From: Chiloscyllium plagiosum
Taxonomy: Eukaryota
Length of the DNA stretch: 64,000 nucleotides
Reading direction: 5' to 3'
Assembly: GCF_004010195.1 (NCBI RefSeq)
Contig: NC_057749.1
Coordinates: forward strand, 19,739,946-19,803,945
The notes beneath the pieces are model-generated. The model did no database searches and was not told where the DNA came from. It was given only the letters and a program-made list of their open reading frames with translations. Each line of letters begins with the position of its first letter. Position 1 is the stretch's first letter. Both the position numbers and the translations under genes were made by a program. Below are positions 12,265 through 49,939 of this stretch, piece by piece.

Positions 12265-12397
12265 ACATATATCAAGAGTCAAGACAAGGACTTTGTAGCT
12301 GCTACTATACAGGCTATTGGCCGATGTGCTACCAACATTGATGAGGTCCGTGACACTTGCCTGAATGGATTGGTTCAACTGTTGTCCAATAGAGATG
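12265..12397 (+). CDS. AP3B2: AP-3 beta-2 internal exon (trunk): [44 protein letters not shown]
   Basis: Pyrimidine tract + ttag acceptor (12261-12264), G|gtgagg donor; 133 nt, phase 0->1; peptide recognisable as beta3-adaptin trunk. Confidence 0.95.
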
Positions 12398-18822: not shown

Positions 18823-18999
18823 GTTCCTATGGCAAGAGCCAGTATCCTTTGGCTTATTGGTGAGTACTGTGAACATGTGCCCACGATCGCTCCTGATGTG
18901 CTTCGGAAAATGGCCAAGTCCTTCACCAATGAGGAAGACATTGTTAAGCTGCAAATCACTAACCTGGCTGCCAAACTGTACCTTACCAACTCCAAACAG
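18823..18999 (+). CDS. AP3B2: AP-3 beta-2 internal exon: [59 protein letters not shown]
   Basis: tgtatag acceptor, CAG|gtgttt donor; 177 nt, phase 0->0. [15 protein letters not shown] matches the beta3B (AP3B2) rather than beta3A pattern as I recall it. Confidence 0.96.
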
Positions 19000-20506: not shown

Positions 20507-20693
20507 ACCAAACTGCTGACTCAGTACGTTCTTAATCTGGCCAAGTATGACCAGAACTATGACATCCGGGACCGAGCCCGTTTCATCCGGCAGCTCATTG
20601 TTCCAACAGAGAAAAGTGGTGTGTTGAGCAAGTATGCCAAGAAGTTGTTTCTGGCCCAGAAGCCTGCCCCAGTCCTTGAATCCTCCTTTAAAG
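20507..20693 (+). CDS. AP3B2: AP-3 beta-2 internal exon: [62 protein letters not shown]
   Basis: ctccag acceptor, AAG|gtagga donor; 187 nt, phase 0->1; contains adaptin YDIRDRARF motif. Confidence 0.96.
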
Positions 20694-24613: not shown

Positions 24614-24732
24614 ATCGGGATCATTTTCAGCTCGGCTCATTGTCCCACCTGCTGAACAGCAAAGCTGGAGGTTACCAGGAACTCCCAGATTGGCCTGAGT
24701 CTGCCCCTGACCCCTCGGTCCGTAATGTGGAG
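24614..24732 (+). CDS. AP3B2: AP-3 beta-2 internal exon: (D)[39 protein letters not shown]
   Basis: ttacag acceptor, GAG|gtaatg donor; 119 nt, phase 1->0. Confidence 0.95.
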
Positions 24733-24859
24733 GTAATGGACAAAGTTTTAGCAAATTTGGGACAACTGTCCATACCAATACCCTGTTGCATTTATATAGC
24801 ACCTCTAATGCAGTAAAACGCCACAAGGTGCCTCACAACAGCATCACCAAACAAAACCA

Positions 24860-25760
24860 TGTTCAGCTGCTTCATCAATGACCTTCCCTCCATCATAAGG
24901 TCAGTACTGGGTACGTTCGCCAATGATTGCACAATAGTCAGCACCAATCACAACTTCTGAGATACTAAAGTAATCCATGTCCAAAAAAGCAAGATCTGGA
25001 TAACTTCCAGGCTTGGGCCGAAAAGTGACAAGTAAATTCATGCTATAAAAATGGCAAGCAATGTCTGACTCCAATAAGAGGCAATCCAACCATTGCCCCA
25101 TGACATTTAATGGCATTACCATCACTGAATTCCCCCACCATTAATATCATAGGGATTACAATTGACCAGAAACTGACCTGGACTATAAATATAAATATAG
25201 TGGCTACAAGAACAGGTCAGGGACTAGGAATCCTGCAGCAAATAACTCACTCCTGACTTCTTAAAACCTGTCCATCATCTACAAGGCATAAGTCAGGAGT
25301 GTGATGGAATTCTCCCCACTTGCCTGGATGAGTGTCACTGCAACAACACTCAAGAAGCTTAACACCATCTAGGACAAATCAGCTGGCTTGGTTGGCACTA
25401 CATCCACACATCCACTCCCTCCACCAGTACTGCTCAATAGCTCCAGTCTATTATCTACAAATGCATTTCAGTAAGTTTCCATAAACAGCACCTTTCAAAT
25501 CCACAATCACTTCCATCTGAAAGGCCAAGGGCAGCAGATACATGGTAACACAGTCACCTGCAAGATCTCTCAATCCGCTCACTTGGAAATATCACTGTTC
25601 TTCTGTATCACTGGGTCAAAGTCCTGGGGTTCCCTCTCTATTGGCATTGTGGGTCTATCTCATGCACTCATGGACTACAGCAGTTCAAGAAGGCAGATTA
25701 TCATCACCTTCTCAAGGGCAACTATGAACATGTAATAAGAGCTGCATCAATGAATATGTT
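24860..25760 (+). mobile_element. CR1/L2-group LINE 3' part (second family)
   Basis: FINDLPSIIRS.GTFANDCT; same family on the - strand at ~43050-44610. Confidence 0.75.
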
Positions 25761-26447
25761 CGATGAGTGAATTTTTTTCTAAATTGCTGCTAAGTTGCAA
25801 AAAGAGAGATCCCAGTCAGTGATGAAAAGATAATCTTCGAGGAGATCGGAGAAGTAGAAGAGTTATACAGGGAATTCCAGAGTTTGGGGACCATGCAGCA
25901 GCAGTTACAGCCACCAATGGTAGAGCGATGAAAATCTAGGATGCTCTAGAGGCCAGATTTCACAAAGGTTTTGAGATGAAGGCAACTACAGAGATAGAAA
26001 TGAGACTATGGATAGATTTGAAAATGGGGACGAGGATTTTTAAATCATGACATTACTTGTCAAGGAGCCAGTGTTGGTCAGTGAACATAGGGATGATTGG
26101 TAAGTGGACTCTCAGGTTTTGAATTATCTCAAATATGTAGAGAATTAGCAATGAGGCAGCCCACAACAGGGGACATCGAGCTCTTGTGAAGTGTGCAAGT
26201 CCAGCTTGTCTAGGGGCTTATGGACTGTGTTGTTGGACTGTTAACTGTGTTTCTTTGTTTTTCTACTTTTTAGTAGGATGGGCTGTAATATTCAACTTTT
26301 TAACTTTATTTTCTTTATTTTTCTGCTTTGTACCTAGATTTTGTATCTCGATACCCTAATACCTAAGAAGGCACCATAAGTGGTGATTTGTAAACTTTTC
26401 TCTGTATTCATGTGAGTACATGTGACAACAAACTTAATTCAGTGAGA

Positions 26448-26594
26448 ACAACAAATGCTGGAGATCACAGCAGGTCAGACAGCATCCATGGAGAGACAGC
26501 AAGCTGACATTTTGAGTCTAGATGACTTTTCATCAGAGCTTCAGCATTTGTTATTTCAGTACAGATTTTAGCATCTGCAGTAATTTGTTCCTAC
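26448..26594. mobile_element. Mini Penelope-derived element with degenerate hammerhead core
   Basis: 13-bp direct repeat taattcagtgaga at 26435-26447 and 26595-26607; minus strand agct-CUGAUGA-aaagtcatctagactc-aaaa-tgtc-agct. Confidence 0.7.
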
Positions 26595-27329
26595 TAATTC
26601 AGTGAGAGATTGACCAAGTGTGGATTGGAAAATACAAGTCTAGAGATTGTGAAGGCATGGATGAAGGTTTCAACAGCCAATGAGCAGAAGCAGAGGTGCA
26701 TATGGGACATCATTAAAGTTGATTAATGTCTTTATCAAATCAGCCATATGTCTTGCAGCACACACAGGTTGGCAACATCTGATCTAAAGGAATTTTTGCA
26801 AGCCCTAAGGAGAAGTGAAAGTCTTGAACATGGCATGTTCCTGTCTGATACTTTAACTCTGCAATTATTGTCTGGGAGAGAATGGCAGGTGACACTGTTG
26901 GAGATTGCTTTCTCAGGTCATAGCAGATGTAGAGAACTTCAGGGTAACTATTACTCTGGTGAGGAGTTCAGAACAAAGGTCAGTAGAATTAGAGCCAGGC
27001 TGTTCAGGGATTTTGTTAGGAAACTGTTCTTCACACAAAAGGTTAGTGTAAATCTGGAAACCTCTGACTTGAAAAAGAGGTTGAAGGGATCAATTGAAAA
27101 TCTCAAAGCTGAGATTGACAAATTTTGTTTGGCTTTTAAGAGTAATGCAACCAATGTAGGCAAATGGAATTAAGCAAACTGAAAGCTTTTGAATAAAACA
27201 CTGAGGTTCCTTTCTGGAAGGAGATAATTGAAGTGGGATGTTTGAATTTGATCTCATCTTGGCTAGATTGCATTTGGAATAAGGGGAACTGTTTTAAATT
27301 CTTTATTAAGTGATGTATCCAAAGAGACT

Positions 27330-28440
27330 GGAAGAGATGCCAAAAAAAAGTCAGAATACCAATGGGCTCAGTGCTGAAGGTAATATATTGACAGGTATAG
27401 AGAATTGGCTCATGGGCAGGAAATGGGGATAAGGGTTCTTTTTCAGGGTGGTGACCTGGGATGGTGGGGCTCCACAAGGATCAGTGCTGGGACTGCAACT
27501 ATTTACAACATATATTAATGACTTGGAAGAAGGTTGTACATGTAACCAAATTTGGAGATGACACTAAAATAGCTGGAAAGGTTGTGAGAGGGTTATAAAC
27601 AGTTGACAGAGAGGCATTGATAGGTTAAGTAAGTGGACAAAAGTTGGTAAATGCAGTAAAATATAGCAAAATGCGAATTTGTTCCTTTGAAAAGAACAAA
27701 ATGGAACCTTATTTAAATGGAGCCAAACTGCAGAAAGCTGCAACACAGAAGGATTTCGGGGTACTTGTGCATGAAATTAAGAAAACTAGCACATAGGTGC
27801 AGCAAGTAATCAGGAAGTCTAATGGAATGTTGGCCCTTATTTTAAGGAGGTTGAAGTGTAAGACAGAGAAGTCTTACTGCAACTGCATAAGGTGCTGGTG
27901 AGACCACATTCAGGCTACTGTGAGCAGTTTTGACCCCCTTATTAAAGGAAAGATCATTTCATTAGAGGCAGTTAAGAGAAGGCTCATTGGGATGATTCCT
28001 GGCATGGAGTGATTGTCTTATGAGCAAAGATTAAATAAGTTGGGACTCTATTCTTAACTTTAAAAGAATGAGAGGTGATCTCTTTGAAACATAGGATTCT
28101 TAAGGAGCTTGACAGGGTAAATGCTGAGAGGATGTTTCCCCTCATGGGAGAGTCTAGAACCAGAGAGCAAATAAAGGGGATGCCAATTTAAGAATGAAAG
28201 AAGAAGGAATGTCTTCTCTCAGAGGAGTATGAATCTTGGAATGCCTTGCCACAGAGACCTGTGGGGCAGAGTGTCTGTGAATATTTAAGGTTGAGATAGG
28301 TAGATTTTTGATCAGTAGGGGAATCAACGGTTATGGGGAAAGAGCAGGAAATAAGGGATGTCAGATCAGCCATGATCCTGTTGAATGATGGAGTAGACTT
28401 GAAGGGCTGAATGACCAATTCCTGTTCCTATTTCTTATGG
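27330..28440 (+). mobile_element. Decayed CR1 LINE 3' part
   Basis: GAPQGSVLGLQLFTTYINDL, gtgagaccacatt, terminal tcagccatgatc..cctgttcctatttcttatg. Confidence 0.8.
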
Positions 28441-28827
28441 CCTTGTTGTGATCTTTTAATGCTGGTTTGCAGATAGGGATGGAGCTGGTTTCCTCAATGT
28501 TTTGGGCTTTCTCTGGTTTATTCTAATGACAGAGATATTTTTAATTTACAAAATGTCCTTCATGTTTCATTTTAATCAAAATCATTTCCTTCACAATCAC
28601 ATTAATGAACGAGTTCTATTATTGAAATGATGGTAGTGCAGCTTTAGTTGAATTGACAATCTCTGTCTCTTCCCATTAGTCTCTGTGTGGAGAAGTGTAA
28701 CAGGTTTGATTTTAATCATATTCATCTTTATCAGTTAACAGTGTCCCCACCTGATGATTTATCCTATCCAGTGCTCTATAGTATTTTGATTGTTGAAGAT
28801 GTGGCTGGTGTCCTGTGAATATGTGCT

Positions 28828-29780
28828 GTGGCTTAGTTAGCACGCTTGCCTCCTAAATCATAAGGATGTGGCTGCCTATCCCACTTGAGCATAAGAATCA
28901 AGGCTGACTCTCCATTACAGCGCTGAGGAAGGGCTACACAGTTGGAGGTATGTCTTTCGGATGAGACATTACATTGCAAGCCTGTCTGCCCTCAACAATG
29001 AATGCTAGAGATCTTTAAAAAGTCATTGACAAGTTTTGGTGGTCACTAGTGAGACCAGCATTTATACCCCATCCCTAATTGTCCTTGACAAGGTGATGGT
29101 GAGCTACTTTCTTGAATTGCTGAGTTGTGCTGCAGGTATACTCATTGTACATTCATAGAGCAGGAAACCATGATTTTGACCCAACAACCTATGACAGTAT
29201 TGGTACACAATCCTTTATCCAAAATTCTGAAATCCATGAAGCTCCAAAATCCGAAATTCTTTTTGTGGAGTGTGGAGCGTCATTTTGGCATGTGAATAGG
29301 TGACCCAACTCCACACCCACTCGAACCACGTCACTGAGATGTGACATGGCGTGTGGCCCAGCACTGGCAGGCATCAATTGTGTCTCAGTGTGTGTGCTAT
29401 CCACACGTAGGTCTGCTGTTAGGTAATTTTTTTAATTTCACTGTGAAAATGTCATTTATTCCGAAATCCAAAAAATTCCAAATTCTGGAAAACAATTGGC
29501 CCCAAGGATTTCGGATAAAAGATTGTGTACCTGTACTTTAAGTAAGAGTCTGGGGAGTTCTGCTGGTGTCTTGGCCGATGTGCAACCAACCAACATCAGA
29601 AAAGCACAACTTATCTTGTCATTATCACATGCTGTTTATGGAAGGTTACTGTACTCAAATTGGCTGCTGTATTTCCCATGTTAGAAGTGTGACTAACCTT
29701 CAAAAATTACTTCATTGGTTGTAAAGTGCTTTGAAATGCACAGGCACCATGAGAAATGCTGTATAAATGTGAGTCTTTTT
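28828..29780 (+). mobile_element. Deu-domain SINE (SacSINE1/AmnSINE1-like), split by a LINE tail and a MITE
   Basis: 5' part ..ggaggtatgtctttcggatgagacatt.. (28828-29000); 3' part aaattggctgctgtatttcc..cttcaaaaattacttcattggttgtaaagtgctttg (29545-29780). Further fragments at ~54125-54290 (+) and ~1130-1225 (-). Confidence 0.65.
29200..29533. mobile_element. Tc1/mariner-type MITE
   Basis: Inverted termini ggtacacaatcctttatcc ... ggataaaagattgtgtacc, TA on both flanks. Confidence 0.8.
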
Positions 29781-30466
29781 ATTCAAGTAGAATTCTCTAC
29801 TTGCTTTTAAGTTGATTAGCAGATATGAAAGCACAAAGTCTTTTTCTCACTTCTTTATGATATTGGGAAAGTTTTATTGCTTCAACTTGAGGTACTCAAG
29901 ATGTAGACTAAATGGCTCCATTCTCTGTCTGATAAATTTGCTTTATCCACCTTGATCAGTGGTGTCATAAAAATAGAAGTACTGGGCCTGGACAAACCCC
30001 AGCAATCAGATCTGAAGACTTCAACAAGAGTTAGGGTAACTGCGGGCCTGAATACTTTAAAGTAATGCCATTAGTTAGTAACCCTAGTGTGGATCATATG
30101 AAACCTCTCGGGTCAATATTCCCAAGGGATCCGTATCCTAGACAATTGTCAGCTTTTAGGAATAAAACACAAATGATTGATTCCTCAACAATTCATGGAT
30201 CACAGAATCCTTAGGCAGCTAATTGATTATGGGGCAGGTTTGATGGGTCAAATAGTGAACTCCTAAAGTCCCCAGGCTAAAAGATTAGGAATGCAGATTA
30301 GTAATTAGCCCAAAACAGAAGAATGTAGATTAGTAATCACAAGACTGACCATAGGACAGGCAAAAAGATGTGGGTGGATATGGGGAGTATTTGCAGTGCT
30401 GTGGCTCTGCAGTTTGTTGAATTCTGGTTGTCTGATCGGGAGTGTCCTCTACAATGCTGCCTGCAG

Positions 30467-30523
30467 GAGGAAGCGACCGTGGAGATGGAGTTGCGAATCG
30501 GATTGCTGGGAGACTGGAAAGAG
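30467..30523 (+). CDS. AP3B2: Probable alternative 57-nt in-frame exon: EEATVEMELRIGLLGDWKE
   Basis: ctgcag acceptor, GAG|gtgtgg donor; 57 nt, phase 0->0, no stop. It resembles in length and sequence the 19-aa insert I recall at this position in the long human AP3B2 isoform (EEDLSLIETHVGLLGEYTE). Confidence 0.8.
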
Positions 30524-33500
30524 GTGTGGGTGTGTTGTTTGCAGTGCTGTGTTTTTATGTCAGGGAATCTGTGATTATTCATTTACTCGGGTATTCACCC
30601 AGAAAGTGCGATGTTGAAAGCGCAGCCTGCTCAAGATGATGGTCCTGTGGCGCAGTAAGTGGCATCCCCATTTCTAGAGCAAAAGCTTCAGATTTAAGTG
30701 CCATCTCAGGACTTGAAAGCAAAGGAAGGTGGCCCAAACAAGTTGATTATCAATTCATAAATCTTCCTCATATGATAGGTGGAAAGAACAGGCATGTTTC
30801 CTGGTTGACCAGAACTACATGATAGTTGCAGTGCAACAAGCTTCCTATGTTAAAAGACTGCACAGGCACGTTCTTGCTGTGACCAAGCATTATCCTTATT
30901 CTGAGGGACTACAATACACAACCTATCTATTGCCACATCAAACTGCCACTACAGTCATAAATGCTTTGTAACTGCAGGCTTTTTACTTGACAATATCAAT
31001 GGCATTAAATGAACGTATTGATTGAGATAACCTAAATATTGAATCCATTGAACCAGGTAACTACAGCATTAGTCACCATAATAGGTAGTACTTCTGCTTT
31101 GAAACAAAGTGTTTTGGCCCATCTCCCTTGTCGCTAAATCTTGGTGCTATTTAGGCACATAAATACAGCTGACCACACTAACATGAAGCTTTGTGTTCTT
31201 CACTTGCTTGTTTCATATGTTACATTGGCATCAGCATCTACCTGTTGTTGTTATTGCCATCTGTTCTAATGAGAAACCATGTTAGAAATGAATGCATTTG
31301 TTTGTGCTGACTTCAGTGTCTTCGGCTCTATCACAATTACCACAAGAACTAACCAAGCTGGTCAGAGAAGAATTCTACCCATTTTCTGTTTTAGGAAGGA
31401 GCAACATCTTCTTGCTTTGAGGAAAAACAGTCTGTTATCTGTTATTTTCTGCTTTGAGATCACCTCTTAAGGGTGGGTAAGAAGAGGCTTTGAAACTGAG
31501 AGTGGGCATTTGACAAAGAGCAGTGATTAGAACATAGAACTCTACAGCACAGGATTGGGCCCTTCGCCCCACAATGTTGTGCCGCCCATGACGCCAAATT
31601 AATCCAATCTCTTCTGCTTGTCCTTGGATCATAACGCTTCATTCCTTTCATATTCATGGGCTTATGTAAAAGTCCTTTAAATGCCCCATACGTATCAAAC
31701 TCCACCACCATCCTTGGCAACATGTTTCAGACACTGATCGTTCTCTGTGTAAAAAAGCTTGCCACCCACCTTTGAACTTTCCCCCTCTGACCTTAAAGGG
31801 GGCAGAAGACTCTGCAAATTGTATATTTTCTATTCAATATAAAAACAGATTCATAAGTGTGTTCATTTTTTTTGGAATGTATCATAATTTATTCATACAA
31901 ATGCATCAACCTTTACATATTATAACATAAATCCTACAAAAGAGCGTAGTTATTTGAAAAATTGTAATTTGTGGTATAAAACATCTTGGTGGTCTTCTGA
32001 GAACTAATACTTGATATGAATCAAACAATATCAGTAGGAACTTAATTCTTGCTCAGAAACTCTGCATGGCTTGTGCTTATGACAATTCATGCCATGCTCA
32101 TGAGAACTCTGTTGTTTATATCTTGTGTAAGGAGTTGTAAGTATTAGGGATGAGAGTTCTGGCTTGTTACCTCATGCGGCTCAGCTATGGTATTATTGGG
32201 CCAGCCTCTAGTCTGCCTCAAGGACCTTCCAGTGGCTAGAACTCCACATTTTGAAATCCACTGCTCTGCCTCACTGACACAATGCCCATTTTGTTTCCTG
32301 GCACAGCCAATTTCTTATGTTTATTCATTTAGATGCTTTTCAGCTGTAGATTCCATGCCAAACAGTGAGATAGAAATCAAGACAGGCAGCTTTTCTTTGT
32401 GGAGGGAGTTTATTAATTTCCTCAGTCTTAGAATTTTCATCTCACGTTCAGTGTCGCACTCACAGCTGCTCCTTATTTCAATGTAGATAATTTCCAGTCA
32501 ACCTGTTAAGAGATGTATAACATCTCTGGAGCAGATCAGATTTGAGTCTGGGTCTTCTGGTTCAGAGGTAGGAACACTACCACTTCATCCCAAGACACCC
32601 ATACCCTATTTATATGTGCTCAAATATAATTAATATCCACCAGTTACTTCTCTGGTGGATATTAATCAGCAATGATATTATAATAATGAAGCAAATTTCT
32701 TGTACATTAATGACATTATGATGTCTGGAGTATGACCCAATCACTGTTGGTTAACAGAAATCTTAATAAAGGAGTTATAAGATGCTAGGTTTTTTGTTCT
32801 CTAGATGACCGATATTAGAATCTTTTAAATCTTTGGTTTTGTTGATTAATAATTAGTACATAAACTGTGAATGTTTGTAAGTTAGGAGAAATATAGAACT
32901 TAGAAGGTTAAGGGGTGGTCTGATTGAATTTTTCAAGATATTAACAGGAAAAGATTGTGTAGATAAAGATGAGCTTTTCCATTGGTTGGGGATGCTAGAA
33001 CTATGGGGCATAGCCTGGCCCTAATTCTCAGACTATTCAAGAGAGATGTTAGGAAGCACTTTTACACACAAAGGGTGGTAGATGTTTAGAACTTTCTTCC
33101 ACAAATTGCATTAGATGCAGGATCAGTTGTTAATTTTAAATCTGCGATTGATAAACTTTTGTCAAGCAAAAGTATTAAAGGATATAGGCCAAAGGCAAGT
33201 ACATGGAGTTAGGCCACATATCAGCCGTGATCCCATTGAATATGAAATAGACTCAAGGGGCTAATGGTCTACTTCTGTACCTATGTAAAACCACATGTTG
33301 CTCCAGGAATGATTTAATTTACTCTCCATCTCCAAACAACAGGGCTGCTCCTAATTAATAGCAAATTTATAAAGGATTGATTCTGAACAAAGGTCTGGTT
33401 TGGTCATAGCTAAAGTATTGCAATCAGCTCTAGTCACTACTCTTTAGAAAGGATGTGAGGATCCTTGGGAAGGTGTAGAGGAAATTTACCAGAATCATTC

Positions 33501-34539
33501 CAGGGTTGAGACATTTTAGTGACAAGGTGAAGTTGGGCAAACTGTTTTTTTTTAACTTATAGATTCGTAATGTTGTACAGCATGGAAACAGACCCTTTAG
33601 TCCAATTTGTCCATGCCAACCAAGTTTCCCAAGCTAAACTAGTCCCATTTGCCTGTATTTGCCCTTATATCCCTGTAAACCTTTCCTATTTATATACCTG
33701 ACTAAATATTTTAATCTTGTAATCTTCCTGCATCTACTAGTTTGTCTGGCCGTTCATTCCACATATGAATCTCCCAAAGAAGATTTAGGGAAGATTTGAT
33801 ACAGCTGAACAATATTATGATAGATTGAGATAAGGTAAACAAGGAGAGTTGCCAGTTGCCAGTGATTATTACTTGACAAGTAATGCCCTATTGGTATCAC
33901 AATTCATCATATTAATATTCAGACTCCCATATTAATAACCAAACAAACTAGCCCTCGGGAAGATTCAACATGAATGGATTCAGCTTGCTGTTTGCTGCAA
34001 ATGATCTACATGTTGCAAATGACCAAAAAGCAGCTCAGGGCATGATCCACAAGCATCAGTCACATGCACACTTTCTCTACAAACATTGGCATGCAGTATC
34101 CAACCACCTCTCATGGTCATCTTAGCACCTCTCTGTTGCACTGACAAGCATTCTGGAAGCACAACTTTGCACTGCTGTACACACTGGTAAGAGCATTGGG
34201 GGCTGCAGCAGGAGCACTTTGTGCACAGACACAAACACCAACCCATGGATTAGGCCAGGCTGCATCCTCAAGGCTGCTTGTTTGCTCTCATAGTACACAT
34301 TCACTTTGCAGCTACCAAGATGCCTTTTCTTGTCTTGCAGTGTCAATTAGTGCATTGCACAATAAGCAGTTTTCTCTCCACAGATGCTGCCAGACCTACT
34401 GAGTTTCTCCAGCAACTGCTGTTTTTGCTTGTTTCAGGCAGTCCTCAGTTAAGGGGGAACATATCTTGCAATGTGCCATGTAAATCTCATGCCTGCTTTA
34501 TGTTCCACCAGCTTACTCAGCAAACACACAACATATGTG

Positions 34540-34825
34540 GGCGGCACGGTGGCACAGTGGTTAGCACTGCTGCCTCACAGCGCCAGAGACCCGGGTTCAA
34601 TTCCTGCCTCAGGCTGTGTGGAGTTTGCACGTTCTCACCGTGTCTGCATGGGTTTCCTCCGGGTGCTCCGGTTTCCTCCCACACTCCAAAAGATGTGCAG
34701 GTCAGGTGAATTGGCTGTGCTAAATTTGCCCGTAGTGTTAGGTAAGGGGTAAATGTAGGGGTATGGGTGGGTTACGCTTCGGCGGGCCTGTTTCCACACT
34801 GTAAGTAATCTAATCTAATCTAATA
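34540..34825 (+). mobile_element. V-SINE (HE1-like), young copy
   Basis: Intact A/B boxes, CpGs retained, (taatc)n tail. Confidence 0.88.
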
Positions 34826-37532
34826 TGTGTTAAGCACGCAGCCATGTCTCAAAGTCTTATGGAAGTAGTTGTCACTGATGTCCAGGCACCCATCGGTCTG
34901 GAATCCCAGCACAACAGGAATGATAACTAAGTTTATAGTTGACACACAGATTGGCCAAGTGGTTGACGGTGAGGTCTTAGGTTACAGAAGGATTTAAATG
35001 ATTGGTCAGATGGGCAGATTGGTGGCAGATGGAATGTAACCCTGGTAAGTATGAGATGGTGCAGTTTGGACGAAGTAACAAGATAAGGGAGAAATCAAGA
35101 ATGGCAGGAGAAGTAGGAAGCTCAGAGGAACAGTGTGATCTTGGAGTGTTTGTTCACAACTCACAGAAGGTGGCAGGGCAGGTTAATAGGGTAGGTAAGA
35201 AGGTATACGGGACACTTGCCTTTATCAGAGTCAAGAGTGTGGTGCTGGAAAAACACAGCAGATCAGGCAGCATCCTAGGAGCAGGAGAATCGACACTTCG
35301 GGCATAAGCCCTTCATCAGGACTGAGGCTTGTGAGCTGGGGTACTGAGAGATAAATGGGAGGGGGCATGGGGCTGGGGGTTAGTTAGCTGGGAATGTGAT
35401 AGGTAAATGAAAGTGGGAGTGAAAAGTTGATAGGTCAGAGCATAGACTGGAACAGCAGGGAGGTTATGTACAGACGTTTTGTTAGGCTACAGCTGGAGTA
35501 CATTTCTGGTCTCTGCTTTTCCCGAAGGATGTGATTGTACTGGAGGAGGGGCAGAAGAGATTCACCAGAGTGTTGACAGGGATAGAGCACTTAAGCTATG
35601 AAGAGAGGCTGGATAAACTCAGGTTGTTTTCTTTGGAACAGAGAAGGTTGAGTGGGGACCTGACAGAGGTGCATAAGATTATGAGGGACATGGAAAGAGT
35701 GAATAGAAAACAGCTGTTCCCCTTAGTTGAACAGTCATTAAGCAAGGGCGCATAATTGTAAGTTGGAAGGCAGGAGGTTTAGAGCAGATTTGAGGAAACA
35801 GAATTTCCCCAGAGATCTGGAATGCACTGCCTAAGAGGATAGTTGTTGCGGTAAGCTTACAACCTTTAAAAAGTACTTGGATGTGCATTTGAAATGCCCA
35901 CTGCATTCTAGACGCCTGTCTGCTGTAGTTGCTCTGCCTGTGCATTTGGATGAAGTCTTTGTTTGCCAGCACCACAGATTCATCCCCTGCTTAGGGCTGA
36001 TCAGGTAACTGGTATCTGGCAGACCTCCAACTGCCAACAGTCTGGGTAATTTCTTCCATAACCAGCTGAAATGCTGTTGTATTGAGATGCTCGCCAACTT
36101 GTGTTCCTACACTCTCTATGCCTAATGTTTCCATTTAGGCATCATTACCCAAGCGGTTAGTAGTGTGCAAGTGACAACATTTCTGAGGCCCCATTTGTCT
36201 CGCGCTCAGAGCTTCAGGAGGTGCTTCTGGTCGAACCAGGCAGTTCTCCATAGACAATAGAGTCTTGTGAGTTAGCTAAGGGAAGTGTGGTATTAGCCCT
36301 AGTGGAATAGGGAGAGTTATTTACCTTCTAGAAGTACTACTGGCTGTTCTTTTGCAGCCTGGAAATGGCACTGCCTCAAGTGGTGACCGTGGACCAAGCT
36401 GGTAGCATTTTGGCATGACTTCCTTTGCTGGTCTTCCAGAAGAGGACTCCTCTCCTTCAATCACCCTATCAGGACCTCCAGGTCCCTTGGAGAATCATGA
36501 TGCCATCTTTTCTTTTCTGCCATGTTCTGACTCTGCCCTTCGAGATGCAGTGCAACTTTAGAATGCCAGAGCTCGTCCAGGTCTTCTAAAGTCCAGGTAT
36601 GGGCTCAAGAGTTGCCAGTCATTTGCAGATATCCATTGAGTGGCAAGCTACTCTGGGAATAGCACGTGGTAAGATGAGTTAGAAATGAGACACAAGATTT
36701 GCAGTAGGAGTGTAATAGTTCATTAATGCGGTGAGTTTAGCAAGATACAATGAGAAATCCCACTTGGCCTCACTGTGAAAAACCCTCCAAAAACCTCAAC
36801 GCAATTCAGACTTAGTCAAAAGAAACTTAAGATTCAGCCAAGGAGTCTCCCATTTAGAATGGAGATAAGAAAGATTTCTTTTGTATTCACTTCTGCAGAG
36901 AATATTGTTGATTAAATATATTCAAAGTTAGAGTAAAGTTTTGATTGACCAGAGTGAGAAGTTATGGGACCAAGCCAGAAAGTGGAGTTGAGACCACAAT
37001 CCAATCAGCCATGATCTTATTGAATGGAGAAGCAGACTTCAGGGGCCAAATGGCCTACTTCTCCTTCCAAATTTTATGTTCTTGCCAATCAAGCTGGACA
37101 TTATTACACTGAATTTGTTACACATGGAAAGGCTGGGTAATTTTGACGCTTTGTATCTCAACATAATGCATGTGTCCTGGGCTGGGAAGCATGGGCCTTG
37201 TGTGATTTGTGTGTCCTCTTACCTGCATGTTGCTTAGGACTTTTGCACAGACATTTTGAGAACTGACAATGACTTCACATAATCTGACTTAACAGCATTT
37301 GGTAGAAATTCAAGGTTGTATTCAGTGTTGTCTTGTGCATCTTCCACTGTCTGTGCCCAACTACACACCAATAATGAGTTTAATAGTGGACCGTGAGAGT
37401 TATAATTTACAAGACGAGCCTCTAAATCTCTCTGTCACATCCTGATCCAAAACTACGGCCTGCCTTATGGTTTGATTCCCCTTGTCACTTTGTGCAAATT
37501 GGATGAATCATTACTTAATTCCTTCTTCCCAG

Positions 37533-37644
37533 GTTTCAGAATGGACTAAACCCATTGGCAGAGAAAAGAGAAAGGAGAAGGTCGAAAAACCATTCTATTC
37601 TGATTCCGAGGGGGAGTCTGAACCTACTGAATCAGCAGACAGTC
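37533..37644 (+). CDS. AP3B2: AP-3 beta-2 hinge exon: [37 protein letters not shown]
   Basis: ccttcttcccag acceptor, C|gtgagt donor; 112 nt, phase 0->1; EWTK and [17 protein letters not shown] are AP3B2-like. Confidence 0.93.
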
Positions 37645-42198: not shown

Positions 42199-42358
42199 AG
42201 TCCCCAACTGCCAGTGAGTCTGAAAGCATGAGTGAAATTGAGAGTGAGAGTGGCTCAGAGAATGATGAAGAGAGTGATGAAGAGACCAAGTCGGACAAGG
42301 AGAGAAAGAAGAAAGCAGGAAAGGAGAAGAGCAAGAAACAAGATGAGAGCGAGGACAG
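42199..42358 (+). CDS. AP3B2: AP-3 beta-2 acidic/Ser-rich hinge exon: (Q)SPTASESESMSEIESESGSENDEESDEETKSDKERKKKAGKEKSKKQDESED(S)
   Basis: cacag acceptor, CAG|gttggt donor; 160 nt, phase 1->2 fits both neighbours. Confidence 0.87.
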
Positions 42359-45337: not shown

Positions 45338-45506
45338 TGGACAAAGTGAAGGTGAAGAGAAGACAGTGAAAAAACACAAAGAGGAGGAAGAATCAAGTTC
45401 TTCTTCTTCTTCCTCCTCTGAGGAAAGCTCCTCGGAGAACAGCTCATCAGAATCAGAGTCAGAGGGAGACTCTGAATTGGATACCGGTAAAAAGAGCAGG
45501 AAGACG
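45338..45506 (+). CDS. AP3B2: AP-3 beta-2 hinge exon: GQSEGEEKTVKKHKEEEESSSSSSSSEESSSENSSSESESEGDSELDTGKKSRKT
   Basis: ttttcag acceptor, ACG|gtaagc donor; 169 nt, phase 2->0. Confidence 0.9.
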
Positions 45507-47837
45507 GTAAGCCAGTTATGAATCTATTTTTGTCGAGATGCATTCGGAAAGTGCGAAATGTTGCTGGTTCATATACTGGACTAATCCCAGAGATGGAGTA
45601 CTGAAAGTACACTATGACAACTGTTATATGCAATAATAATAAAAATAATATACTGCAGATGCTAAACATTTGAAGGAAGTACAGATATTGCTGGAAATGC
45701 TGAGAAGGTTTCAGGTTTATCAGAACTGAAAAATGCTGAAATATTCACAACCAGAAATGTTAATTTTGTTTCTTTCTCCATAGCTACTGTCAGACCTGCT
45801 GCATTTCCCTAGCATTGTGTTTCTAATTCCAGAATTATTATCATTGAATTCAGGAAATTATAGGAGAGACGGTGGTGAAATGGTAATGTCACCAAACTAA
45901 TCGAGATGCACAGACTGTGTGGACACTTGTTCAAATCCCACCATGCCAGCTGGTGGAATTTAAATTCAATTAATGAATTTCGAATTGAAAGTTAGACTCA
46001 GTATTGAAATCATGATTGGATGGGAACCATTGATTGTGGTAAAAAGCCATCTGATTCACTGATGTCCTTTGGGGAAGGAAATTTGCCATTTTCATATCAT
46101 CTGGCTTACATATGGCCTTCATATGACCCACCAGCAACTCTTTTCTGAAATGGCCTAGCAAACTGCTGAGCTCAAGGACAGTAGGGCTGGCCTTGCCAAT
46201 AACACTCACATCCCATGAAAGAATAGAAAAGAAACAAATCAGGAAATGACCACAGTCTCTGGATCAATGTAGATATCAACTTAGTTAATCAATATCCCTC
46301 CATGAAAGGGATCTGCTACTTTGGTCAGGTCCACATGACTGAGTTTTTGGTTGATCTTTTGGTTCTTTCAGCATTAGGCTAGGAAAAGCTATCTATACTC
46401 AGACTTGCACTACAGCAGAAATTTACCCCCTTATTATCTTCAACACAAATAGGGGTGGGCAAAATTGGCGAGATTGCTTGCTTCTGGAGAAGTTATTTTA
46501 AAAGTTCTCCTCACCTGACATATTTACCTGAACTGACGTTTTTTCCACAATGGTCCTTGTACCCTGCCATCTACCACTTCTGCAATCTAGGTATTAAAGA
46601 TATCAAGGGTATGGGGAAAGTGCCCAAGGGATTGATTGACCTGTCCTTATTCCTATGAGCATATAATTTCACTTTCCTGAAATTTCGAAGGTTCCTCCCT
46701 TCAGATTTTGTCATTGTTTCTGAAGTCTGTCTTTACATTGAATGTATGGCATTAAAGCAAATCATTCAGCCTAACTAATCCCTGTTGTTGTTTATGCTGC
46801 GCTTGAGGTACTCCTATCTTTCCAGATGTAAATCTCCACACTGGTTTAGAGTTGAGGTTTGCACCTGAATTTGGCTCTCTTTGACCAGTTCTAAGTGCAC
46901 TTGAGAGTTGAGATCCCTTTCAAACTAGTGGAATCAACAGCAACAAGTTGCATTTATGTAAATCCTTCAAGAATAAAGTGTACAGTCCATTTCGATATGA
47001 ATGTTATCAGATAGAGATGACAGCAACATTCCTGGATTTCCTCAGTGCAGTTGTGAAATAGTGACTGCAGCTTCAGTCATTGGGCTGAGGAGCCACTTGT
47101 TTTGGGCTCCTGCCTCAGATTCCCATCAAGACTTAATTTTGGATTTTGTTTTGAATTCTTTCATGGGATGTGGGTTTTTTTGGCACGGCCAAAATTCTTG
47201 ATCATCTGAACTCAATTGTCCCTGAACTGGTTGGCTTGTTAGGCCATTTCAGAGGCCAGGAAAGAGTCAGCTACATTGCTTTTGGTCCAGACTCGCACAC
47301 AGGCCACGCCATTTTAGGATGGCGGATTTTCTTCAGTTTAGTGGATTTTTACAATTTGTAATGAAAGCTGACATGACCACCATTGAGGTTAGTTTTGTAT
47401 ACTAGATATATTAGTTTGTTTCAAATTCAACTATCTGCCCAGGCGGGATTAGAAATGATGTTTCCAGAGTGTCTAATGATATTACACACAGTCTCCTCCT
47501 ACCTACTTTCCGACCACCGCAACACATCTCTTCCTAATTGTCCTACTGGAGCTGAGCACCTGGATTGCCTCATAAATGGTTTATAAAGTGCCTGTCAACA
47601 GAGTCCATCTTGGGAAATTAGGATACAGATTGTGATCAGTGTGCACAATCCAAATTCTGCACCACAGAGAAATATCAAGCCTAAATGCAGAGCTTTTAGG
47701 AAAAGCTACTGATTGATGCATGATTCAGGAATGTGGAAGTGATTGAAATTGGCAAACAGAATATGAAATACAAATAAGTCAAAGCTGAAGTTTTTGTTAG
47801 CCTTTTTTGCAGATGACTTGCTCCGTTCTTTTCTCAG

Positions 47838-47913
47838 CTTTTCACAGCAAAACCACCTCCAAGGCCGCTTGAGACAAAACAGAAGGAGATCTCTCTCCTT
47901 GACCTGGATGACT
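47838..47913 (+). CDS. AP3B2: AP-3 beta-2 hinge exon with clathrin box: LFTAKPPPRPLETKQKEISLLDLDD
   Basis: ttctcag acceptor, T|gtgagt donor; 76 nt, phase 0->1; KEISLLDLDD(F) is the beta3-adaptin clathrin-box segment. Confidence 0.9.
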
Positions 47914-49338
47914 GTGAGTCTTTTTTTTATTTCAGTAGTTCTGAGAATAGTTAAAATAGACACTACCTTTACTCCAAAATGTGCCTGTTGATCTGATTCC
48001 TTTGAAATTCTAACTGCACTTTGGGTCTCCATTTTTTTTCAAGATCACTGTATTTAAATAGCTCTGCTTTCTACTGGATGTTTGCACACAAAGCTAACAC
48101 CAAAATATCTGATTCTTAACTCTTTCTGCCAGGTATTGTGGCTGAAATATTACAATGCTCTGCCTATGCACCATTACCATGGCTGCCATTTTCCAGAAAT
48201 GTGTCTGCGTGAGGTGTGGATGGGGGGGGGGGTCACTCTTCAGAGAGTCGGTGTAGACTTGTTGGGCCAAGTGGCATGTTTCTACATGTTAGGGATTCTG
48301 TGGTGTGCTGCGGTGTATTTGCCTGGTTCAGGTCAGGGTCTTACGATCATAGACACCTTGGTACCAACATAGAGGTTATTTAACCATCCATCAAATGGGA
48401 CAAATGCTGATTGCTTGGGAAAAGGAATGTTTTTGAGGGCATTGACACTTACCAGTTCCGAGAGGAAGAAGCTCAAATACCTCTTAGTGGTATCAATGCA
48501 CTAACTCTTTGTTTCACTGCAAATCAACATCTAAATTGACTTTCCATTTCCCATACACCCAGGGAGAAGGGATTTGGGATTGTTTTTAAATGATTCTCAG
48601 ATTTTGGTCAAATCTGTCAAAGGTGCACTTCTTGTTTGCCCCTGATTGTTGCGAGACAGGGACATTCAGGTCACTACCAGCCTCCAGTTCAAATATTGTA
48701 TCTAGTCTTGGCACCATCTTTAGGAAGGTCATGACAGCATTACAAAAAGGGTTCACAAAATTTGTTTAAGGGGTGAGGAATTTCCGTTCTGAAGACAGAT
48801 TGAAGAAGTTAGGATTTTTTTTGGAGAAGAGAGGGCTGAAAGATTATCAGATTGAAGTATTCAAAATCATAGGGGTCTGGACAGAGTAGTTAGGGTGAAA
48901 ATATTCCTAACCATGAAAGGATCAAGAATGAGAGAATACGAATTTAATTGGCAAAACAAGAAGATAGTGATATTTTTAAAAGTTTTTTTCACCCAGTGAG
49001 TTATTAGAGTCTGGAACACATTGCCTGATTCATGCAGGTAGGTTCATTTGAGATCTTCAAAAAGTTACTTGACTTATTTGACTGTTGTTTGAAAGGAATG
49101 GTATGTGGGGTTCCTGGGAGAAAATAGGAGAATGGCACAAAATGAAGTGTTCATTTGCAGAAATGATGGCTGAATGGCCTCTTTACATGCTGCAATAATT
49201 CTGTGATTCAATCATTTCAATGTTCAGAAATCATCTTAAGTTGTCAGCAGATGTTCAATGAGAGTTGTTTCTGCTACATATTAATGTTCTTTGGAATTGG
49301 TTCTTCTCTTTCACCCTCTACCTCCTTTTTTTTTTCAG

Positions 49339-49448
49339 TCAGCTCACCCACAACCTTCCAGAGCAGTCCCTCTCCCAACACATTGCCCAAAAGTCTCAAT
49401 CTGGATCTACAGGGGTTAACATTAACTGACACAACCCTACTATCTGAG
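49339..49448 (+). CDS. AP3B2: AP-3 beta-2 hinge exon: (F)SSPTTFQSSPSPNTLPKSLNLDLQGLTLTDTTLLSE
   Basis: poly-T + cag acceptor, GAG|gtgagt donor; 110 nt, phase 1->0; DLxGLTLTD motif. Confidence 0.92.
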
Positions 49449-49939
49449 GTGAGTATTGTCCTGATTGATATTCAATTGATACCTGTATTAATATACTAAG
49501 AATTTAATTTCAAATGTCCACACGCAGGATCCAATCAATTCTTTGCATAAAGTAGTTTTAAATGCATTTTGATTCTTAAGCCAGTCTGCCCATTTCCAGC
49601 TGAATGTGGACAGTTTTCAGAAAGCTGAGTGGAGAGTTCTTTGGATACACCTGCTGGTTGCCACTGCCTGTACTGTTTCCACTGGAGGTAACAACAGATG
49701 TTGATGGTGTCTGCCCAGATAAGAGAGATTTCCAATAAAACCATGGCACTGAGATTTTGTTTCCATATTCTTTCATGGGATATGGGTACCACTGGCAAGA
49801 CACTGGTTTTCCATTCCTAATTGCTCTTGAACTAAGTGGCTTGCCAGGCCATTTCAGCAGAAAGTTAGGACTATTGTGGGTCTGAAGTCACGTGTAGGCC
49901 AGACCAGGTAAAGATCATAGATTTCCTTCCTTAAAATCC

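Follow-up and report, generated by a model that had tools for sequence, protein, structure and literature searches.

The 57-nt segment at positions 30467–30523 (+ strand) of the window, by which the whole 64,000-nucleotide stretch of Chiloscyllium plagiosum DNA analyzed here is meant, is very probably a genuine cassette exon of AP3B2. In this reading the exon is orthologous to the one annotated in other vertebrates, is probably still spliced into the transcript, would be helped in this by the UGC motifs that precede its acceptor, and may encode a linear motif with a GLLG core. The position of the exon, its reading frame, its splice dinucleotides, its homology, and its single-copy status are established, as is the occurrence of the skipped form in RNA. 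AP3B2 is the neuron-type beta subunit (beta3B) of the AP-3 vesicle-coat adaptor. The exon provides neuronal AP-3 with an optional insert of 19 residues at the boundary between the trunk and the hinge, and the core of this insert is unchanged across all of the jawed-vertebrate groups sampled.

The AP3B2 gene is found on the + strand of the window, where exons for residues ~411–939 were located between positions 12265 and 63013 by tblastn with shark AP3B2 proteins. The exon borders were set by testing pairs of donors and acceptors against eight hemiscylliid reference proteins, and six of the splice junctions obtained in this way reproduce all eight of them. The constitutive upstream exon at 24614–24732 (+ strand, 119 nt) ends with ..PDPSVRNVE and is followed by the donor GAG/gtaatg. 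The constitutive downstream exon at 37533–37644 (+ strand, 112 nt) is preceded by cccag, begins with GTTTCAGAATGGACTAAA (VSEWTK), reads VSEWTKPIG.. after the acceptor, and marks the onset of the acidic, serine-rich hinge. The intron between them at 24733–37532 (+ strand) is 12,800 nt long and consists mostly of high-copy repeats. The junction 24732/37533 is exact in 8/8 of the reference proteins and fixes the two flanking exons, so that a cassette within this intron would be inserted at phase 0/0. The other neighboring exons are at 20507–20693, 42199–42358, and 45338–45506. Further downstream, in the region 45338–49454, the junctions 45506/47838 and 49448/62780 each appear in one of the eight reference isoforms and the junction 47913/49339 appears in seven, which points to further annotated splice variation in the hinge and ear-linker exons among the hemiscylliid isoforms.

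The candidate exon lies on the coding strand of the intron that separates the ..SVRNVE exon from the V[SP]EWTK exon. Bases 30467–30523, read directly from the + strand, are GAGGAAGCG...AAAGAG, and their 19 codons contain no stop and are translated as EEATVEMELRIGLLGDWKE. The trinucleotide cag occupies 30464–30466 and gtgtgggt begins at 30524. A preliminary description of the window had proposed an exon of 57 nt and 19 codons in phase 0/0, placed exactly between RNVE and VSEWTK, and the direct sequence and its translation bear this out. The segment thus has one of the two lengths (57 or 60 nt) of the homologous exons, together with an open frame at phase 0/0 and AG..GT borders. The same description had called the pyrimidine tract weak, which holds only in a relative sense; the pyrimidine fraction at −22 to −4 is 0.68, equal to that of the constitutive upstream exon and within the range of 0.53–0.89 spanned by five neighboring exons. 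The donor of the cassette matches at 5 of 9 positions, compared with 5–7 of 9 for the neighboring constitutive exons. The splice signals of the cassette are on par with those of its constitutive neighbors.

An intron of this length offers many segments with the outward form of an exon. The + strand of the intron contains 622 candidates of 30–150 nt in which an AG, an open frame of 3n nucleotides, and a GT follow one another, and 31 of them are exactly 57 nt long; the segment at 30467–30523 might be one of these, resembling an exon by coincidence. Every 19-codon stretch of the intron, on either strand, was compared with the inserts of seven other species; 9,301 of these stretches are open. The stretch at 30467–30523 ranks first among the 9,301 with every one of the seven references, at z-scores of 6.3–11.0, and the runners-up do not exceed 5.4. 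The individual z-scores are 11.0 with the insert of Carcharodon, 10.4 with Heptranchias, 9.5 with Hemitrygon, 9.2 with Leucoraja, 6.8 with Dermochelys, 6.5 with Dipodomys, and 6.3 with Zootoca. Ten consecutive residues are the same as those of other sharks, and the segment falls at precisely the junction that carries the annotated homologous insert elsewhere. A fortuitous open frame is refuted in practice by these results, and the probability left to it is vanishingly small.

The exon is also distinct from the repeats that fill the intron. A 501-nt stretch around it has a single match, itself, in the 3.56-Gb genome of the species, and is present as a single copy. The word depth in sequencing run X1 is ~7.5 at the exon, compared with values from thousands to 1.9 million in many other bins of the intron. 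The exon had been described earlier as lying in a non-repeat island; it is single copy genome-wide, and its bin is among the few low-depth bins of the intron, in agreement with that description.

Homologous inserts were collected from AP3B2-related proteins retrieved in searches with the upstream exon and with residues 643–682 of the Carcharodon X2 protein. Among the 170 proteins of at least 600 residues, RNVE is followed at once by a GLLG insert in 84; the junction is direct in 51, inserts of other kinds alone are present in 33, and two lack the junction. The cartilaginous fishes outside the orectolobiforms have the insert in 15 of 23 proteins. In Carcharodon carcharias the insert is EEALAETEVRIGLLGDWKE in isoforms X1, X2, and X4, and it is absent from isoform X3. 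The corresponding peptides are EEALVETEVRIGLLGDWKE in isoform X2 of Cetorhinus maximus, EEVFTETEVRIGLLGDWKE in isoform X2 of Heptranchias perlo, and KEVSEEPEVRIGLLGDWRE in both of the Hemitrygon akajei isoforms seen. The skates Leucoraja erinacea (five of eight isoforms) and Amblyraja radiata (three of five) carry NDVSSETDVRIGLLGDWKE. These annotated exons share with the exon in the window the gene, the junction (..SVRNVE / V[SP]EWTK), the length of 19 residues, the phase, and a second half that reads RIGLLGDW[KR]E; they differ from it at 4–8 of the nine residues of the first half. The inserts annotated in other sharks are positioned after RNVE, which excludes a mapping to a different intron.

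The public models that contain the insert come from lamniform and hexanchiform sharks, skates, a stingray, ray-finned fishes, turtles, lizards, and one rodent. The hits at E ≤ 0.001 obtained with the Carcharodon residues included no birds, amphibians, or jawless fishes, which is no sign that these groups lack the exon. The insert of the ray-finned fishes is 20 residues long in teleosts, sturgeon, and paddlefish (for example, QEEVIDTSEGRIGLLGDWRE and LDEVISPSEGRIGLLGDWRE), one residue more than the shark exon. The insert of turtles and lizards has 19 residues (for example, EETAFLIESHIGLLGELRE and EESIGPMESNIGLLGERIE), as does that of Dipodomys ordii (EEDLSLIETRVGLLGGYTE), the one rodent model. 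According to the preliminary description, the long human isoform of AP3B2 has a 19-residue insert at this position as well, and the Dipodomys peptide is close to the one given there. The bony-vertebrate inserts share with the exon in the window the junction, the preserved frame, and the core E-x-[RHN]-[IVM]-GLLG-xxx-E, and differ in the residues after GLLG, for which tetrapods, salmonids, and cods show no conservation.

From this comparison of sequences the exon is judged to be the ortholog of the annotated 57- or 60-nt exon found at the same junction in other jawed vertebrates. Since homologous inserts are present at that junction in bony vertebrates as well as in other cartilaginous fishes, the exon is, on the same comparison, older than the split between the two lineages, and it is already visible in public annotation. 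Such an age had been suggested earlier, and the cartilaginous-fish, ray-finned, reptile, and rodent models speak for it. The exon is real, old, and widely annotated, and its existence would not surprise a specialist.

Two more optional pieces, VK[ED]S and V[IF][RA]LLERVTTLTS, are carried by teleosts at this junction, and the shark intron has neither of them. The four-residue piece VK[ED]S appears to come from the use of a donor lying 12 nt downstream, since the open frames that read through into the intron start with VKES or VKDS. The cassette of 13 residues, V[IF][RA]LLERVTTLTS, comes after the GLLG exon. Counterparts of this cassette and of VK[ED]S were sought in the shark intron; the top candidates, scoring 23 and 21, lie at places that lack splice sites and were rejected.

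All 84 inserts conform to the invariant pattern E-x-[RHN]-[IVM]-G-L-L-G-xxx-E, and the peptide of the window contains this core. The insert of the window is composed of a variable, acidic first half and a conserved second half, E-x-R-I-G-L-L-G-D-W-K-E. The first reading of the window had treated GLLG[DE][WY] as the conserved unit, and this has to be given up, as the two residues after GLLG vary. They are EL in turtles, EH in a softshell turtle, KP in monitor and skink lizards, ER in lacertids, GY in Dipodomys, AW in turbot, DR in cods, and DT or DR in salmonids.

In the Carcharodon protein the insert occupies residues 653–671, between the Adaptin_N domain (35–582) and the AP3B1_C domain (832–979), just before the acidic, serine-rich hinge. 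Inclusion of the exon in C. plagiosum would likewise lengthen the protein by 19 residues where the trunk (..PDPSVRNVE) gives way to the acidic, serine-rich hinge, with the frame kept. A structure of the Carcharodon isoform predicted by AlphaFold2 from a 36-row alignment has a mean pLDDT of 52.8 and a pTM of 0.35; residues 561–900 are below 50, and the model is uninformative on the insert.

The most economical reading of the core would be that of a short linear motif in a disordered hinge, where it may serve as a binding element that tunes the interaction of neuronal AP-3 with its partners. The clathrin box is defined as L-hydrophobic-x-hydrophobic-[DE] and the acidic dileucine signal as [DE]xxxL[LI]. 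In a comparison by eye, LLGDW departs from the clathrin box, with G and D in the places of x and a hydrophobic residue, and the conserved acid stands five residues before LL, not four as in the acidic dileucine signal; both assignments were rejected. Neither of these two motifs has an exact match conserved across the orthologs, in which the residues after GLLG are themselves not conserved.

Carried one step further, the proposal would make the core a short linear motif, so far undescribed, through which neuronal AP-3 changes from one of two functional states to the other. The core could either recruit a partner or fold back as a near-dileucine pseudo-cargo onto the cargo site of AP-3 itself, and splicing would then decide which neurons or which stages use the switch. 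This proposal is prompted by the retention of the core throughout jawed-vertebrate history within an optional exon and by its absence from the AP3B1 paralog. It is offered tentatively and is rather unlikely to hold.

The AP3B1 paralog, which encodes the ubiquitous subunit beta3A, was examined for an equivalent cassette. An AP3B1-like gene is found in the same genome at C2:31770596–31772772, where the homologous exon is present and is followed, as in AP3B2, by a hinge exon with ..KFYSDSEE... The intron at this junction is 2,056 nt long in AP3B1, compared with 12,800 nt in AP3B2. A cassette of the GLLG type was not found; the best 19-codon stretch in the 30 kb downstream has a z-score of at most 5.0, and none of the top three stretches for each reference is located in the 2,056-nt intron or is flanked by both AG and GT. 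No frame of this intron encodes GLLG. A gap of 2,617 N at C2:31794058–31796674 is well beyond the intron. The cassette thus appears to be specific to AP3B2, the neuronal subunit.

The closest relatives of the species are the exception to the general annotation of the exon. The insert is missing from all 21 orectolobiform AP3B2 proteins seen, a set that includes all but one member of a 16-member cluster. These proteins comprise seven from Chiloscyllium punctatum (X1–X6 and one older model), five from C. plagiosum (X2–X6), seven from Stegostoma (X1–X7), one from Rhincodon, and one from Hemiscyllium. A search of proteins of 30–611 residues for a short fragment with the exon gave 19 candidates, none of them at E ≤ 0.01. 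The exon had been introduced as hidden, which is accurate for the orectolobiform models and inaccurate elsewhere, where it is routinely annotated. It is an annotation gap in one order of sharks and not a new exon. For the genome of C. plagiosum the result is an annotation fix, as the AP3B2 of carpet sharks currently lacks an isoform that neighboring shark orders, rays, and bony vertebrates have. The form with the exon may be rare in orectolobiforms, or lost from them.

The transcription of this region was examined in the sequencing runs that bear the label of the species, which comprise four runs of unrecorded kind from one study, two single-cell poly(A) runs of raw reads, and small runs. Run X1, of unrecorded tissue and kind, is taken to be RNA because it contains GT..AG joints at annotated exon borders and because its depth of 5–25 over unique intron sequence is too high for 2.4 Gb spread over a 3.56-Gb genome. 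The joint 20693/24614 and the skip joint 24732/37533 (GT..AG, 12,800 nt) are found in one contig of this run at a depth of 55.5. The inclusion junctions 24732/30467 and 30523/37533 are not among the X1 joints listed, which come from contigs that drop minor forms. The exon itself is contained in an unspliced contig of 603 nt with a depth of 6.6, no higher than that of the adjacent intron. Since contigs keep the major path, these data show that skipping is the major form in the X1 sample, and nothing more. A single variant, G to C at 30475, appears in the contig of depth 6.6; it changes the third base of the third codon from GCG to GCC, which both encode alanine. The small run X7 contributes short pieces only (for example, the exonic 18829–18999), none of them in 30112–31379. 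The single-cell run X5 has 1,218 reads on the window, almost all of which are partial matches to high-copy repeats, and no reads of the single-cell run X6 matched the window.

These observations bear on the possibility that the segment is a relic, descended from the conserved cassette, no longer spliced in by orectolobiforms, and undecayed because shark genomes change slowly. The 0 of 21 protein models, the lack of a short fragment with the exon in the protein collection, the skip junction as the only one of the three among the listed X1 joints, and an exon depth equal to that of the intron are what such a relic would leave behind. Gene models depend on the tissues that were sequenced, however, and contigs drop minor isoforms. 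The frame, the AG, and the GT are all intact, the acceptor has kept its UGC cluster, the splice signals do not fall short of those of the constitutive neighbors, and the sole X1 variant is synonymous. The last 10 residues of the peptide are the same as in lamniform and hexanchiform sharks. Relative to Carcharodon, four of the first nine residues differ and none of the last 10 (one-sided Fisher p ~ 0.03, computed by hand), so that change is confined to the part of the exon that varies in all of the groups compared. A relic is improbable on this evidence, and the exon is probably still included in C. plagiosum as a minor or cell-type-restricted form.

The sequence in front of the acceptor offers a clue to how such inclusion might be regulated. 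The acceptor region CAATGCTGCCTGCAG at 30452–30466 (+ strand) contains UGC at −12, −9, and −5, which are the motifs just before the acceptor that had been pointed out beforehand. At least three TGC trinucleotides within the preceding 14 nt are found at only two of the 4,214 AG sites on the + strand of the window. Control by SRRM4 is made plausible by this rare cluster in front of the acceptor, and SRRM3/4 may serve as a plausible first guess for the regulator of the exon. The cluster would then be recognized by a factor that favors inclusion, with SRRM4 or SRRM3 as the best candidate, and it is also the one feature that speaks for the neural regulation suggested earlier.

The main targets of SRRM4 are microexons of 3–27 nt, and some longer exons are also acted on. 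The AP3B2 exon has the UGC motifs close upstream of its 3′ splice site, as expected for an exon of this group, and at 57 nt it exceeds the 3–27 nt of the SRRM4-dependent neural exons. Microexons are taken as 3–27 nt in the accessible parts of PMC7935315 and PMC6948980, and as up to 51 nt in that of PMC12064062. The nearest described parallel is microexon 34 of TAF1, whose SRRM4-dependent inclusion is, according to the available part of PMC6948980, mediated by UGC motifs immediately before the 3′ splice site. Both exons have UGC directly upstream of the 3′ splice site, where it interrupts the pyrimidine tract, and both add residues, with the frame preserved, to a stretch of a neuronal protein that is presumably disordered.

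The records on AP3B2 itself are at the level of the gene or of unnamed exons. The accessible part of PMC7935315 lists AP3B2 only in gene-level rows, as a gene up-regulated by SRRM4. Retention of an ap3b2 intron in Betta is reported in the part of PMC9150285 that was available, and differential exon use in mouse Ap3b2, with the exons not named in the text, in that of PMC12559144. Ap3b2 was not found in the five supplement files searched from the nSR100-knockout paper PMC4387716. The portions of the literature and supplements that were searched contained no exon-level data on tissue specificity or SRRM4 dependence of the AP3B2 exon in any species, and no study of this cassette was found among them. 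The exon can reasonably be described as recorded in databases and functionally uncharacterized, and as a small target for work on AP-3 and on neuronal splicing. Loss of AP3B2 causes the epileptic encephalopathy DEE48, according to the accessible portion of PMC13050717.

Factors other than SRRM3/4 could also be drawn to this sequence. MBNL, which recognizes YGCY, CELF-type proteins, which bind GU-rich sequence, or repressors that loop the exon out through a flanking repeat might control inclusion instead. The UGC cluster also reads as YGCY at −12 and −9 (UGCU and UGCC), and further YGCY motifs are present at −70, +22, and +105. The donor gtgtgg opens a GU-rich stretch at 30524–30559 (+ strand), in which 32 of the first 36 intron bases (89%) are G or T, in keeping with the GU-rich sequence that had been reported to follow the donor, and UGUGU occurs at +8 and +25. 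The exon is flanked by a perfect repeat of 14 nt and a 13/15 repeat, and its length of 57 nt is beyond that of a microexon. Motif counts alone, on the other hand, cannot separate the candidate readers, and control by these other factors is regarded as possible and somewhat doubtful. The absence of GCAUG within 268 nt of the exon makes Rbfox unlikely, and since UCUCU is likewise missing within 300 nt, there is no obvious PTB site. Given the exon length, the YGCY reading, the GU-rich stretch, and the flanking repeat, control by SRRM3/4 is still a guess.

The flanking repeat consists of an upstream copy at 30362–30403 (+ strand; AAAAAGATGTGGGTG ... TTTGCAGTGCTGTG) and a second copy that overlaps the end of the exon. 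The element TTTGCAGTGCTGTG is identical at 14 of 14 positions between 30390–30403 and 30538–30551, the latter within the GU-rich stretch, and 13 of 15 positions match between 30362–30376 and 30518–30532. The pair has an alignment score of 28, compared with a mean of 17.2 and a maximum of 27 for shuffled sequences. The last 6 nt of the exon, the donor, and the next 28 nt are in this way repeated 64–105 nt upstream of the exon, and the upstream copy has AT in place of the donor GT. The repeat may have arisen by local duplication, or its two copies may form a pair of sites to which a splicing factor binds.

The same intron harbors a very high-copy element at 34397–34825 (bin 34550–35183), where the word depth in run X1 rises to as much as 1.86 million. 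Many of the single-cell RNA reads of run X5 stop at 34818–34824 and continue into poly(A). The element is probably an abundant, transcribed repeat of the retroelement type.
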